Assembly (NCBI GenBank): GCA_048882385.1
Contig: JBHLRQ010000002.1
Location: forward strand, 1 to 64,000
Direction of reading: 5' to 3'
DNA: 64,000 bases
Source: Candidatus Thorarchaeota archaeon
Lineage (GTDB): Archaea > Asgardarchaeota > Thorarchaeia > Thorarchaeales > Thorarchaeaceae
The notes beneath the pieces are model-generated. The model saw only the letters and a program-made list of their open reading frames with translations, was not told the origin of the DNA and did not search any database. This document shows, piece by piece, positions 43,847-48,720 of this stretch; positions within the stretch are counted from its first letter, which is position 1; every line of letters begins with the position of its first letter. The translations under genes were made by a program, and so were the position numbers.

Positions 43847-44347
43847 TTGGTGAGGACATTGAGTGATCAACTAGAAGTGTTTGAACAGATTAAATCATCG
43901 CCAAATTTCTTGCTGATTTTAGTTGGAGCAGTGATTTGGTTTATTGGATATTTCACATGGGTCTTTATGCCAATCTTTGTTGTTCCTGGATTTGCGTTGA
44001 CAATTATTGCTACAGCTCAAGCAGCTATGAGTAGACCAATTTCATCTGCTCTCCCTGGGTTGCTTGTCGGTGGATTGATTCAAATTGGTGGATACCTGGT
44101 CCAGAACGTCATCATCATTGGATGGGTGCTTGGTCCTGCACTGCAAGTCTTTGGTGGAGTCATGCTACTATTCTATGGTTTTTCCATAGCACTACAGAGA
44201 ATTGACATACCCATTGTCAAGAACCTTGAGGATTTCCTAGAAGCCCAACAGAAAAAGGATGAGCCCAAAAGGAAGTCAAAGGTTGAAACTGTTGAAGAGA
44301 TTGAAGAAGAACCTGAGTTAGATGAATCAGACGAAACTGACCAATAA
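43847..44347 (+). CDS. Hypothetical membrane protein (about 4 TM) with acidic tail
   Basis: Hydrophobic N-terminal two-thirds; EEIEEEPELDESDE tail. Confidence 0.65.
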   Translation: MVRTLSDQLEVFEQIKSSPNFLLILVGAVIWFIGYFTWVFMPIFVVPGFALTIIATAQAAMSRPISSALPGLLVGGLIQIGGYLVQNVIIIGWVLGPALQVFGGVMLLFYGFSIALQRIDIPIVKNLEDFLEAQQKKDEPKRKSKVETVEEIEEEPELDESDETDQ

Positions 44348-44446: not shown

Positions 44447-46720
44447 GTGTTTACATGCAAGCGTTGTGGTGACCCACTGTTCATTCATACTGCAGAATTG
44501 AAAGACAAGATTCTGAAAATGAATGTTCAGTGCCTTCGAGGTCACAAAAGTGTTCGGCGGCTTTCTGAGCACCAGGCAATGGAGATGGCTCCTGAGGTCT
44601 TCAAGAGGTTGTATATATGCACAGAGTGTGGGTCGAATATGACCCACATTGAAGAAAGAGGTAATGGGAACAAAATCGAATCCGTTTTTCTATGCCCAAT
44701 CCATGGGCCACAGAAGCGTGAGTTTCCACGAGCTTTTGGTTCAACAGTTGACCTTGTTGGAGCTGATGTAGATAGTCCTCGATCGATAATTGATTCTTTC
44801 AGATGTCCTCAATGTGGCCTCGTATACGCAGTCAATGAGATTGACCAACGTCGTGGAATTCTTGAGGTGGACACTCGTTGTGCAAATGGACACAAGACTA
44901 CAAGGTATTTACCAAGTAGTATTGACACTACCTTGCTGAAGAACATACTTCAGCGAGTTATACATTGTGACAAATGTGGTCTCCCAGGACATATTGTGTC
45001 TTTGGAAAATAAAGGAAATACTACAAGAGTCAATACATCATGTCCAATTCATGGCTTAGCCAAGAAAGATATTCTAAGCACGCAAGTAGATCTGCTTGAA
45101 CAGGCGTTTTCAGAGATTCCAGAAGATGCGGTAGTAAAATCGACATTGACCTCCCATGAATGCCGAAAACCCCTCGCAATTCGTGGGATTGAAGAGGTCA
45201 AACAGGGATACCGCCTCAGATGTATTTGTCCTGGAACAAAATATGCTTCTGACAGAGTACTGCCACTGACATGGAATGAATCTGTTCTGGATCGAATCAC
45301 AAGAGCCATCTTGACTTGTGATGAATGTGGTCATCTAACTCATATTCTAGATAAGAAAAAGAGCAAGAAGAACGTAGATTTCAGAATAGTCTGTCCAATT
45401 CATGGAGTCATGACCCGTGAAGCACCGCCTGATGTTTTCAAGAAAATTCAGAAGTGCGAATCCTCCATTGACAGAATGCCATCTATTGTACGAAGTCTGA
45501 GTTGTGAAAAATGTAGTATGCCTATGAATGTACGAGATGTGGAAGAGAAGAGGGGCCTTATTGAGTTTGATACAGAATGTCGCAATGGTCATCGAAGCAA
45601 CAGACTATTCATACCTGGACTTGATCAGGAAACTCTCTCAGGATTATACAAAAGGCTCTACCAATGTCCTGAATGTTATGAGTCACTTGATTTAGTCTAC
45701 ATTGAACCGCGTGGAAGGGAAGATAGAGTTGTTCTGTTATGTTCTTTACATGGCAAGACTGTATTAGACATTCCCCCAGACCACGCCGAGGCTATGCAAA
45801 GAGCCTACAATGAAATGCAAGAAGATAAGATAAAACCTCCAACCGAAGCACCCGCGCTGGATTCTTCAGAATCATTGGAAGTTTCAGCTGCAATGCAAGA
45901 TTCAGATGCAGGTGTGCAAGTACTACGAGGATGTGAAATCGTTGGAGGAAAATTCGACTATAAAGTCAAAATCAAGAATGATAGTGGATATGTAATCACA
46001 AATGTCACAGTAAGTATTGTTGCTTATCCTCAAGATTGTATGGAGCTTGCAGGAGAAACCGTGAAGACAATCTCTCGGATTGAAGTTGGTGGTTTCCGAA
46101 GTCCTCAGTTCACGCTCTATCCTACAAAAGACTGTGTACAAGGAAAAGTGGTAGCTACGGTTTCTTATATTGACTTTCTCGATCAGTTACACACCGTTAA
46201 CGTGGAGCCCTATCTGATAAGGTCTGTGTGTGATCTCCTTCAACCATTGAAAGAAACATCTGATGCATTCGAACTTGTCCTCACAGGACTGGAGAAAACC
46301 CAGCAGGAACAGACATTGGATTGGAATCCACAAGTATTGTATACAAAGGCTGAGAAGATACTCCCCGCCAAGAACTTCCATATCATTGATGCTGATGAGG
46401 AAATCATCGCTGGTGAGTTCATAGGAACCATCAGAGGATATGCTGAAGGCAAGTATACTCAAAATAAGGTGGCAGTCATATTACTCATCAGTGGACCCGA
46501 AAATGGAAGACATGCTAATGTGAGAGTTGAAGCATTGGGAGAAGACGCAGCAATGCTTCCTACTACAATCGACGAATTAGCAGACACAATGGACTCTTGG
46601 GTTTGCTTGAGGTGTGGAGCTCCACTCGAGGTTGAGCAAGTAGAAGAGATGGGAAAGCGATTTCCAATTCGCTGCAAATACTGTACTCATACGCTTACAA
46701 TAGCACTGTATATGCAATAG
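44447..46720 (+). CDS. Octa-repeat C3H metal-ribbon protein with adaptin/COPI appendage-like Ig+platform domain and C-terminal Zn ribbon
   Basis: 8 modules CxxC-x21-Cxx(GH/HG); YKVKIKNDSGYVITNVTVSI...VSY.D, DLLQPL; CLRC..CKYC. Confidence 0.75.
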   Translation: MFTCKRCGDPLFIHTAELKDKILKMNVQCLRGHKSVRRLSEHQAMEMAPEVFKRLYICTECGSNMTHIEERGNGNKIESVFLCPIHGPQKREFPRAFGSTVDLVGADVDSPRSIIDSFRCPQCGLVYAVNEIDQRRGILEVDTRCANGHKTTRYLPSSIDTTLLKNILQRVIHCDKCGLPGHIVSLENKGNTTRVNTSCPIHGLAKKDILSTQVDLLEQAFSEIPEDAVVKSTLTSHECRKPLAIRGIEEVKQGYRLRCICPGTKYASDRVLPLTWNESVLDRITRAILTCDECGHLTHILDKKKSKKNVDFRIVCPIHGVMTREAPPDVFKKIQKCESSIDRMPSIVRSLSCEKCSMPMNVRDVEEKRGLIEFDTECRNGHRSNRLFIPGLDQETLSGLYKRLYQCPECYESLDLVYIEPRGREDRVVLLCSLHGKTVLDIPPDHAEAMQRAYNEMQEDKIKPPTEAPALDSSESLEVSAAMQDSDAGVQVLRGCEIVGGKFDYKVKIKNDSGYVITNVTVSIVAYPQDCMELAGETVKTISRIEVGGFRSPQFTLYPTKDCVQGKVVATVSYIDFLDQLHTVNVEPYLIRSVCDLLQPLKETSDAFELVLTGLEKTQQEQTLDWNPQVLYTKAEKILPAKNFHIIDADEEIIAGEFIGTIRGYAEGKYTQNKVAVILLISGPENGRHANVRVEALGEDAAMLPTTIDELADTMDSWVCLRCGAPLEVEQVEEMGKRFPIRCKYCTHTLTIALYMQ

Positions 46721-46872
46721 AGGTTTTTACTTACAAGAAATATCGTGAAATGTTATTACAGATAATCGAAAATTGCCCAGAAATACCAATTTCATCAGCT
46801 ACGTAATACCTTTTAGGGACTTCCGCACATGACGAATAGTTTCATCGCCGCGTGCCAAGGTGGAGGAGAAGC

Positions 46873-48720
46873 TTGTTCACGTGTAAGAAATGTAAAGAGC
46901 CATTCTATGTTCAGGCTGGTGAACTGAGGGGACAAACACTTCGAGTTTACTGTCAATGCTTGAATGGTCATAAGGGGAAACGTGACGTTTCGAGATATCA
47001 AGCAGACAGTATGGCAAATGAAGTCTTTGAAGGAATCTTCACTTGCATTGAATGCGGTTCTACGATGTCACTAATGAATACTGATGTGGGTAGATCGAAG
47101 GCAGAATACACCTTCATTTGTCCAATCCACGGACCTCAGATGAGAGCAATACCTGCATTCTATCATACTGCTATCGCAGGAATGCAGGGAAGTATGAATA
47201 GTTCAAAATCCATCCTTGATTCATTGAGTTGTCCTAGATGTGGGGAAGTATTTGTTGCTCATGAAATCGCTGACAAAAAAGGTATCCTTGAAGTAAAAGC
47301 CCGTTGTCCGAATGGCCATAAGGAGATGCGCTTTATCCCAAAGGTCGCTGATGAATCTGTACTAAAGACAGTTGTAAAACGTCTCATTCATTGTGATGAA
47401 TGCGGTCTACCATGTCAGATATTGGAAACCCAACCTAAAGGCAACAAGGCCCGAGTTGAGATTTCGTGCCCAGCTCATGGGAAAGCCAAGAAGGAACTTC
47501 CCGCTGAGTATGCATGGATGTTTGAAGCCATCGTTGAGGCTATGTCTGAGGGAAGTATTGTACGTTCGATGCTGAACTGTCGTGACTGTGGATCTCCTGT
47601 TTCGATTAGGAGTATTGAACTTGATAAGATGAAATACAAACTCAAGTGTAGTTGCAAGAATGGTCACAATGTAGATCTTTCTCAACCAGTTGATTTGGAT
47701 GAAGAAGCTATAGATTCTATAATTAACGGTGTTTTGAAGTGTACTGATGGTGATTTAGTTTCTGATATCGTGGAAACCAAAGTTAGTGGAAACGATGTAG
47801 AATTGAAGTTGGTCTGTCCTATCCATGGAGACTTCAAAAAGAGTGTTGCAGTTGGAATCTATAAGCATCTAGAAGAACGTAATCCACACATTGATCGAAT
47901 GCCCTCAATTGAGGAGAGTCTAAAATGTTCGAAGTGTACTTCTCCAATGACCATTCGTGGAACTAAGGTGCGAGACAGTATTGTTGAATTAAAGATGGAA
48001 TGCAGAAATGGCCACGGAGATGGAAGATATCTGCATGTTGGAGCTGTGGAACCTGTTGTTGAACGGTTCTACCGTCAGCTGTATGAATGTCATAAGTGCC
48101 ATAATCCCTTGAATCTATCTTTGATTGAAGAAAAGAACGATAAATCGGAAGTGACACTAATGTGCGAACAACATGGCGAAAGCAAAGTGGAGATTCCGAG
48201 GGAACATGCTGCACTGGCTCGTGACGCATTTCTATCAACAATGAGCATGCAAGATTTGGAGATGATTCTTGAAACACGTTTACAAACAGAGAGAGCTGCA
48301 GAGTATCAAATAGACCCAGATGCTGATATTCAAGAGATGCTCGATATTGTAAATGATATTATAGAACAGCAAAGTGTGAAATTCATTGGAGAAAAGAGCG
48401 GAACAAAACATGGCGAGGAATCTTGGTTTTATGGAAAAGCCAGGTCCGGCACTGAATACATTGTGATCGGATCAGTTTCAAAAGAAAATCTGACAATGCG
48501 GATATCAGTTTCAAGTGATGATGAGAGTAAAATGGAAATGCTTCTATCCGAGATGCGAGACGGTCTCAGAGAAGTCCTACTCAAACTCCAAGCAAAAACT
48601 GGTGACACAGCTCCGAAAAAGATAGAGTGCGAACAATGTGGTGCGGCTCTGAAAAAACGTGCACTTCCAGGAGAAACTGTAATCTGTGATCATTGTGGAA
48701 CTCCATTACACTGGGCATAG
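46873..48720 (+). CDS. Paralogous octa-repeat C3H metal-ribbon protein with platform-like domain and C-terminal Zn ribbon
   Basis: TTG 46873 after GGAGGAG gives MFTCKKC, matching MFTCKRC of the neighbour (ORF track start 46852); 8 modules; CEQC..CDHC. Confidence 0.75.
   Translation: MFTCKKCKEPFYVQAGELRGQTLRVYCQCLNGHKGKRDVSRYQADSMANEVFEGIFTCIECGSTMSLMNTDVGRSKAEYTFICPIHGPQMRAIPAFYHTAIAGMQGSMNSSKSILDSLSCPRCGEVFVAHEIADKKGILEVKARCPNGHKEMRFIPKVADESVLKTVVKRLIHCDECGLPCQILETQPKGNKARVEISCPAHGKAKKELPAEYAWMFEAIVEAMSEGSIVRSMLNCRDCGSPVSIRSIELDKMKYKLKCSCKNGHNVDLSQPVDLDEEAIDSIINGVLKCTDGDLVSDIVETKVSGNDVELKLVCPIHGDFKKSVAVGIYKHLEERNPHIDRMPSIEESLKCSKCTSPMTIRGTKVRDSIVELKMECRNGHGDGRYLHVGAVEPVVERFYRQLYECHKCHNPLNLSLIEEKNDKSEVTLMCEQHGESKVEIPREHAALARDAFLSTMSMQDLEMILETRLQTERAAEYQIDPDADIQEMLDIVNDIIEQQSVKFIGEKSGTKHGEESWFYGKARSGTEYIVIGSVSKENLTMRISVSSDDESKMEMLLSEMRDGLREVLLKLQAKTGDTAPKKIECEQCGAALKKRALPGETVICDHCGTPLHWA

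Follow-up and report, generated by a model that had tools for sequence, protein, structure and literature searches.

The 64,000-nucleotide stretch of Candidatus Thorarchaeota DNA analysed here (positions 1 to 64,000 of contig JBHLRQ010000002.1, GenBank assembly GCA_048882385.1; hereafter, the window) carries two adjacent, co-directional genes for zinc-ribbon proteins, and the C-terminal part of the first of them is predicted to fold as a two-lobed ear of the kind found at the ends of adaptins and COPI coat subunits. We read gene 1 as a soluble cytoplasmic scaffold whose ear, together with a zinc ribbon that follows it, forms a docking module, and gene 2 as its reduced tandem duplicate; we put the probability of this reading as a whole at about 0.6. 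The domain order, the fold, the strong conservation and the reuse of the ear-zinc-ribbon cassette at the ends of hundreds of otherwise unrelated Asgard proteins are its firm parts. The origin of ears bears on how membrane trafficking arose, and the locus adds a compact, soluble and well-conserved ear with a clean trunk-hinge-ear layout, adjoined by a natural paralogue that has the platform only.

A predicted two-lobed ear at the end of gene 1

The ear occupies residues 500-715 of gene 1, and its alignment (A3) has 38 rows, made up of these residues, 11 domains of related loci and 26 family proteins. The AlphaFold2 model of the segment is confident (predicted local distance difference test, pLDDT, 90.4; predicted template-modelling score 0.69). 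In the numbering of the model, residues 1-101 are all-beta and form a sandwich of eight strands, from strand 4-7 to strand 90-94, with a block pLDDT of 85-94; a short junction strand (99-101) leads into a second lobe with the order H-E-H-E-E-E-E-H (H, helix; E, strand), consisting of helix 106-113, strand 117-125, helix 129-142, four strands and a final helix at 202-215.

Compared with the PDB by Foldseek, the model finds nothing but ears of AP-2 alpha, AP-2 beta2, COPI beta or COPI gamma at ranks 1-15 (best E 3.1e-8; TM-score 0.73 on 9qpq_H), and BBS9 stands at rank 17. Structural alignment with VIA-align, run on Foldseek's best 992 chains, places both lobes on the COPI beta-COP ear 9qpq_H in a single superposition (Z 17.1, 205 of 216 residues, root-mean-square deviation 3.0), followed by the AP-2 alpha ears at Z 15.9-16.4 (197 residues), beta2 at 14.6 and gamma-COP at 13.5. 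The best unrelated matches each cover one lobe, the TRAP-beta sandwich at Z 10.7 and the DUF4468 platform at Z 9.8. Because the single superposition on ears far exceeds these single-lobe matches, both lobes of the modelled tail and their mutual orientation are ear-like. A search with language-model features, which we treat as a lead only, likewise gave adaptin/COPI ear clusters as the best named neighbours (scores 0.82-0.87).

The original prediction, drawn by eye from the letters, had likened the C-termini of the two proteins to the appendages of adaptins, beta-COP and the BBSome. For gene 1 the likeness goes far beyond chance and has held up well: the modelled fold is an immunoglobulin-like (Ig-like) sandwich plus a TBP-like platform, the two subdomains align together on the best matches, which are appendages of COPI and AP-2, BBS9 is among the matches (Z 9.8), and between zinc array and ear lies an acidic hinge of variable sequence, in the expected order of trunk, hinge and ear. 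Both open reading frames are present as it described, and all the peptides that it quoted can be read in the translations, namely PPTEAPALDSSES, YKVKIKNDSGYVITNVTVSIV, SPQFTLYP, GKVVATVSYID, DLLQPL, KILPAKNFHII, IRGYAEGK, VAVILLIS and VRVEALGEDAAML in gene 1 and IIEQQSVKFI, WFYGKA, YIVIGSV and RISVSSDD in gene 2.

Layout of the two genes

Gene 1 is the open reading frame 44447-46720 of the forward strand, with 757 aa. The longest open reading frame for gene 2, on the same strand, spans 46852-48720 and gives 622 aa from the first GTG. We consider it most likely, however, that translation of gene 2 starts from TTG 46873 rather than from GTG 46852, for a product of 615 aa, because a Shine-Dalgarno-like GGAGGAG lies 6-12 nt 5' of the TTG, a stop codon stands where the longer N-terminus would lie in 5 of the 18 relatives checked, and many gene 2 homologues have a length of 615 aa. 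The parts of the two genes are as follows.

44447..45811, forward strand: gene 1 zinc-ribbon array, residues 1-455, eight modules of ~57 aa (motif positions, weak Pfam zinc-ribbon matches)
45812..45943, forward strand: gene 1 hinge, residues 456-499, acidic and proline-rich (alignment of 29 orthologues)
45944..46246, forward strand: gene 1 ear, predicted Ig-like beta-sandwich subdomain, residues 500-600 (AlphaFold2 model, structural alignment)
46247..46591, forward strand: gene 1 ear, predicted platform (TBP-like alpha/beta) subdomain, residues 601-715 (AlphaFold2 model, structural alignment)
46592..46720, forward strand: gene 1 terminal C4 zinc ribbon, residues 716-757, and stop codon (CLRC at 720, CKYC at 743)
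46873..48216, forward strand: gene 2 zinc-ribbon array, counted from the likely TTG start (paralogous to the array of gene 1)
48247..48588, forward strand: gene 2 predicted platform-like alpha/beta domain without sandwich, residues 466-579 in the 622-aa numbering (AlphaFold2 model, structural matches)
48616..48720, forward strand: gene 2 terminal C4 zinc ribbon and stop codon (CEQC and CDHC; model strands at 134-165)

No enzyme features were found in either gene. A look for RNA sequencing runs containing the locus found none listed. In public data the homologues of both are called "hypothetical protein" or bear generic zinc-ribbon labels, and the relatives that carry an organism name are metagenome-assembled genomes of Thorarchaeota or with similar labels.

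A predicted platform-only tail in gene 2

The tail of gene 2 was modelled from residues 456-622 with an alignment (A2) of 15 rows. Its AlphaFold2 model (pLDDT 85.9) has the order H-E-H-E4-H followed by a four-stranded zinc ribbon, with no sandwich; the elements (helix 11-20, strand 25-31, helix 38-50, four strands and a long helix at 103-124) match those of the gene 1 platform and zinc ribbon one to one. Foldseek alone is unspecific for this tail and intermixes spermine synthase, AP-4 beta, KICSTOR and PGM. When VIA-align is applied to Foldseek's best 1000 chains, the top 10 are all adaptin/COPI platforms (Z 10.8-11.8), and in an exhaustive comparison of the gene 2 platform with 48,161 PDB representatives, beta2 (12.0), alpha (11.4), AP-4 beta (10.8) and gamma-COP (9.7) take ranks 1-4, with KICSTOR next at 9.1. 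The earlier claim that gene 2 keeps only the platform is thus in agreement with its best matches being adaptin/COPI platforms, and the model supports a platform-only ear; the resemblance is specific but of moderate strength, with a modest margin over unrelated folds.

Zinc-ribbon arrays and hinge

Across their first 454 residues gene 1 and gene 2 are 37% identical. Each array consists of eight modules of ~57 residues, with CxxC...C-x2/3-H signatures at matching positions in the two proteins, and in gene 1 the modules alternate between a CxxC...CxxGH and a CxxC...CPIH type. The gene 1 motifs lie at C4, C58, C120, C174, C291, C353 and C407 and their C..H partners at 29, 83, 145, 199, 316, 378 and 432; module 5 is degenerate, and is so in all 19 orthologues. 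The cysteine and histidine ligands of the arrays are invariant in 19 gene 1 and 17 gene 2 sequences. In the window's copy of gene 2, module 6 reads C-T-D-G (residues 297-300 of the 622-aa numbering, ~47740-47751), with the loss of one zinc ligand; unlike this copy, at least 90% of the 17 orthologues keep the C-x-x-C.

Matches of the zinc modules to known families are mostly faint. The gene 1 array has only weak Pfam zinc-ribbon matches, and its terminal ribbon weak matches to DUF7479 and Zn_ribbon_SprT; the gene 2 protein matches Zn_ribbon_recom (E 6.9e-8), and its terminal ribbon, with cysteines invariant in 15 sequences, has weak matches to Prok-RING_1 and LysW. NCBIfam gives weak zinc-ribbon and LysW-type matches only, and a phmmer comparison of gene 1 with the PDB sequences finds only rubredoxin-like zinc motifs, at E>=1. 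The array itself occurs in 168 clusters at E<=1e-5, and the 120 listed are all of gene 1 or gene 2 type; among the matches listed, therefore, the array is found only with tails of these two types. A complex prediction for array against array (gene 1 residues 1-455 with the gene 2 array) gave ipSAE values of 0.00 and 0.07 against a mark of 0.32, which speaks neither for nor against binding.

The hinge is nearly constant in length and variable in sequence among the 29 aligned orthologues, with a net charge of -7 and an isoelectric point (pI) of 4.05. A search of the hinge for a clathrin-box-like motif returned just a loose recurring hydrophobic-L/I-E pattern, from which we draw no claim.

Conservation and history of the pair

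Among the same 29 orthologues, mean identity to the window is highest for the sandwich, the most conserved part of gene 1 (89%, minimum 81%), followed by the terminal zinc ribbon (80%), the platform (75%) and the zinc array (65%); it is lowest of all regions in the hinge (41% over residues 462-495). Stretches with invariant residues include FRSPxF, PTKDCV, IRSVCDLL, NF, RGxAxGKYT and LGED.AMLPTTIDE. The gradient of identity fits a tethered docking domain with its most constrained surface on the sandwich lobe. Given 89% identity in the sandwich and 65% in the array, that lobe would be the likeliest site for the binding of a partner.

A gene 2-type gene lies downstream of gene 1 in 24 of 51 related loci, in 23 of these with its tail. 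It is missing in the other 27, and in 15 of the 51 loci gene 1 is followed by a UbiX homologue at a distance of no more than ~110 nt; therefore gene 1 works without gene 2 elsewhere. Gene 2 accordingly represents a tandem duplication of gene 1 that is confined to one Thorarchaeota subclade. One related locus has a second, weak match to the ear sandwich (L026:4494-4829; 31% identity over 117 residues), ~2 kb downstream of its gene 1 orthologue.

A cassette shared with many other proteins

The wider family of the ear was explored by searching 1.84 billion proteins with a profile (A1) of 17 ears. The search gave 501 representatives at E<=1e-3, 152 of them at E<=1e-30, and 130 were examined, which is the 150 listed minus 6 of gene 1 type and 14 with truncated matches. 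A hydrophobic 19-residue window precedes the ear in 96 of the 130, within 150 residues in 78, and a CxxC...CxxC tail like that of gene 1 follows it in 88; at least four CxxC motifs upstream of the ear occur in a single one. Where Pfam names the N-terminal partner of the ear (29 listed proteins), these are beta-propellers, beta-helices, giant Ig/PKD arrays, TPR, HEAT, LRR and LanC-like domains. As the cassette thus sits mostly behind a hydrophobic segment of unrelated proteins, one that probably spans the membrane, the family suggests a reusable, general docking module more than a coat subunit, and is in itself no evidence of a coat.

Two members of the family stand apart for the company that their ears keep. 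In P0274 (780 aa; its cluster includes a Candidatus Njordarchaeum member) a region like EAP30/Vps36 (E 1.5e-9) comes right after the ear, and in P0330 (2867 aa) a region like E3_UFM1_ligase (E 3.8e-9) comes right before it, which echoes the fusions of Liu et al. 2020. Among ten clusters whose names were looked up, four bear a Thorarchaeota name and one a Candidatus Njordarchaeum name. By genome, the ear is matched in 114 of 301 sampled from the phylum: in 70 of 76 of the window's own family, and in five other families in 33 of 68, 5 of 5, 3 of 7, 1 of 1 and 1 of 1. The remaining 24 families of the phylum had no ear match among the genomes searched. At the stricter limit of E<=1e-120, an ear of gene 1 type is present in 47 of 77 genomes of the same family, mostly in open frames of 759-780 aa.

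Neighbourhood and the other ears of the genome

Around the pair lie a gene for a catalytically dead SAMHD1-like protein (upstream), one for a 166-aa membrane protein, and genes for UbiX, DUF2070, PadR and ABC transporters. We rejected the conserved neighbours (dead SAMHD1-like, UbiX, DUF2070, PadR) as functional partners, because all 47 loci that share them are close Thorarchaeota relatives and relatedness alone may explain the common order. The paralogous loci L046 and L048-L050 share none of the pair's neighbours. The 166-aa protein is encoded directly upstream of gene 1 (43847-44347, forward strand); it has two hydrophobic segments, a very acidic C-terminal tail and no Pfam match, and 25 of the 51 related loci have, by tblastn, a homologue in this position.

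The genome, estimated as 95.3% complete, has four ears: that of gene 1, two small, putatively membrane-anchored forms on one contig (C10) and a protein with HEAT repeats and an ear on another (C36). The small forms (L056:9262-10554 and L056:11600-12715; 430 and 371 aa) begin with one or two hydrophobic helices, which are followed by a basic linker, the ear and a C4 zinc ribbon; their genes stand on either side of one for an EamA transporter, with genes for a PRC-barrel and a zinc-ribbon protein immediately downstream. The HEAT protein (L057:8949-10169, 406 aa) joins HEAT repeats (PF13646, E 5.9e-7) to an ear (A1 profile, E 1.7e-26) in a miniature adaptin-like layout, and its gene is flanked by genes for a WD40 propeller, a Roadblock/LC7 protein, two KaiC-like ATPases and a Ras-family GTPase.

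Interpretation

In the vesicle coats of eukaryotes, ears serve as docking hubs. By analogy, the cassette of ear and zinc ribbon may be a protein-protein docking module with one conserved putative partner. Gene 1 would then be a rod of eight Cys2-Cys-His zinc-ribbon modules, followed by a flexible acidic hinge, a two-lobed ear of adaptin/COPI type and a C4 zinc-ribbon cap, and would couple the putative partner of the cassette to the ligands of the zinc array. Gene 2 would have arisen by tandem duplication, losing the hinge and sandwich and keeping a diverged platform and zinc ribbon, a state comparable to the platform-only ear of AP-4 beta. Should a partner be found, many proteins with the same cassette would become interpretable at once, and both proteins should be easy to express for partner hunting.

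Several results weigh against this interpretation, the first group of them concerning sequence similarity to known ears. None of the Pfam ear families Alpha_adaptinC2, Alpha_adaptin_C, B2-adapt-app_C, Coatamer_beta_C, Coatomer_b_Cpla, COP-gamma_platf and Coatomer_g_Cpla matches gene 1 or gene 2 at E<=1; for the 38 members of alignment A3, no ear family is among the 25 Pfam families listed, and 58 others each matched at most one member. The ear profile A1 recovers no ear from the PDB sequences, only XRS2 at E 0.023. The link between the two tails is also a weak point: hhalign of the gene 2 tail (A2) against the gene 1 ear (A1) detects no relationship in sequence (E 0.21, probability 0.3%), and the descent of the one from the other, which we infer, rests on topology and position. 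Finally, the membrane anchoring of the relatives was judged with a simple hydropathy window, not a topology predictor.

The missing profile link is also what might be expected if an ordinary Ig-like domain happened to stand beside an ordinary helix-grip (Bet v 1/START-like) ligand-binding domain, with no relation to coat ears. Single lobes do match unrelated proteins, the sandwich TRAP-beta and transglutaminase sandwiches (Z 9-10.7) and the platform DUF4468, Flpp3 and PR-10 (Z 9-9.8). Such convergence is nevertheless hardly credible, given that both lobes superpose on ears at once (197-205 of 216 residues, Z 16-17), well over any single-lobe match, and that Foldseek's top 15 are all ears; another archaeal ear family, possibly distinct from that of gene 1, has in the available text of Makarova et al. 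2024 an HHpred probability of 98 to 5NZR_B and 2IV8_A. A different function for the same fold would be nucleic-acid-binding regulation, with the array binding DNA or RNA and the TBP-like platform contributing. This agrees with the automatic JGI names ("DNA-directed RNA polymerase subunit RPC12/RpoP", "Elf1"), a topoisomerase zinc finger label, the Zn_ribbon_recom match of gene 2, the dead SAMHD1-like protein upstream and the basic character (pI above 9) of four of the eight gene 1 modules. We hold it to be quite improbable because the arrays carry little net charge (+7 over 455 aa in gene 1, -1 in gene 2); the platform is moreover acidic (pI 4.5), most relatives have the cassette behind a hydrophobic segment, and the automatic names rest on generic zinc-ribbon similarity.

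The remaining alternatives take the ear at face value and differ in what it serves. The original prediction saw in the two genes a proto-coat or adaptor whose metal-repeat stalk takes the place of the alpha-solenoid trunk. Spelled out, the two proteins would be large subunits of a coat adaptor of AP/COPI type; their zinc rods would pair as the trunks of adaptins do, and their ears would recruit accessory factors to a budding membrane. The trunk-hinge-ear order is real, the adjacent paralogues with a full ear and a platform recall AP-4 beta (2mj7 is in the top matches), and the pair is kept in 24 of the 51 loci. Yet we regard a coat adaptor as very unlikely: gene 2 is missing in 27 loci, with gene 1 directly abutting UbiX in 15; in the genome itself the best scores for Clat_adaptor_s, the sigma subunit (20.6 bits, cut-off 22.5), and for Adaptin_N (20.9 bits, cut-off 37) fall below the curated limits, the mu subunit not having been searched; no ESCRT, GTPase, AP-core or membrane-remodelling gene was found adjoining the pair; and the arrays are only mildly charged, with no membrane-binding element seen. 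An ESCRT-0-like cargo adaptor, which would recognise ubiquitin or ubiquitinated cargo through its zinc ribbons, in the manner of NZF or UBZ fingers, and pass the cargo to ESCRT-I/II through its ear, is unlikely in our view. Makarova et al. 2024 (PMC10936438), in the portions available, propose such a role for ear-containing Asgard proteins, the EAP30/Vps36-like region after the ear of P0274 points the same way, and there are weak matches to zf_UBZ (E 0.01) and Vps36-NZF-N (best E 0.046, 2 of 38 members). These matches are far under the curated cut-offs, however, neither gene has a Pfam match to Vps28-C, the steadiness box or EAP30, and the three EAP30-like genes of the genome lie on other contigs (C58, C86 and C1).

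We return, then, to gene 1 as a soluble scaffold with a docking cassette. An extension of this idea, which we offer as a long shot, is that an archaeal sorting network uses the cassette as its common handle: dozens of surface and membrane proteins would show it on their cytoplasmic tails, and soluble zinc-array proteins, gene 1 and in some genomes also gene 2, would act as multivalent cross-linkers, gathering the tails into a patch or linking them there to a shared partner. If true, coat-like clustering of cargo could be achieved by ears without solenoid trunks, in a possible forerunner of adaptor-based sorting.

Comparison with known systems

Ears of archaea, including Asgard archaea, are already in print, and gene 1 is a further, so far unannotated example. 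In the parts of these works that were available, Liu et al. 2020 (bioRxiv 10.1101/2020.10.19.343400) report Asgard fusions of Vps28/Vps23 with C-terminal domains of adaptin/COPI subunits and with E3 UFM1 ligase, and Eme et al. 2023 (PMC10307638) find that Asgard archaea have each of the five AP Pfam domains, "not fused to each other". Makarova et al. 2024 (bioRxiv 10.1101/2024.02.06.579148, PMC10936438), again as far as the text was available, describe "adaptin appendage regions" of IG plus TBP type, which occur in several of the ESCRT systems of archaea as well as in multidomain proteins of Asgard archaea; one of these archaeal ears carries a zinc ribbon, and another is tethered through a transmembrane linker. 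The HHpred probability of 98 to 5NZR_B and 2IV8_A belongs to their Methanosalsum ears, and the Asgard ears combined with Vps28-C, the steadiness box, longin or zinc ribbons are their possible analogues of ESCRT-0. The layout of zinc array, hinge and ear was not found in the available parts of these three papers or by full-text literature search, and the passages found in two structure-based Asgard surveys (PMC12962969, PMC13734099) mention neither an appendage domain nor a zinc-array layout.

Compared with these published ears (Meth_adaptin arCOG15284, Halo_adaptin and the Asgard Vps28-C/longin fusions), gene 1 has the same ear of IG and TBP-like parts, a likeness taken from the available descriptions and not from sequence. 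Fusions of the ear with TPR, Ig-like and E3-UFM1-ligase-like parts also occur in the gene 1 ear family, as in the accessible part of Liu et al. 2020. The published archaeal ears, as described in the passages available, lie in ESCRT neighbourhoods or are joined to ESCRT-I/II domains, whereas gene 1 and gene 2 have neither.

Among eukaryotic proteins, the GAE-plus-platform unit of BBS9 (6vbu_9, 6xt9_I) aligns with the modelled sandwich and platform of gene 1 over 169-173 residues, at Z 8.9-9.8 much more weakly than COPI and AP-2, and BBS9 has a beta-propeller and a coiled coil, both absent from gene 1. The tail of gene 2 is closest in kind to the AP-4 beta appendage (2mj7), a platform-only ear: it too is predicted to be a platform without a sandwich (115 residues, Z 10.8). 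It differs in having a zinc array before the platform and a zinc ribbon after it, identity is ~10%, and unrelated helix-grip folds come close (Z 9.1-9.8). With the COPI beta-COP and gamma-COP ears and the AP-2 alpha and beta2 ears (9qpq_H, 5nzr_B, 1pzd, 1r4x, 1w80, 1b9k, 1e42, 2iv9), the model of gene 1 shares the same two lobes in the same orientation (Z 13.5-17.1, 191-205 residues), at an identity of 8-14% and without a Pfam or PDB sequence-profile match. As in AP-2 and COPI, the ear of gene 1 is C-terminal and stands behind a flexible acidic hinge; unlike theirs, it is borne on a trunk of zinc ribbons, not on an alpha-solenoid of HEAT/ARM type, and it is followed by an extra C4 zinc ribbon.

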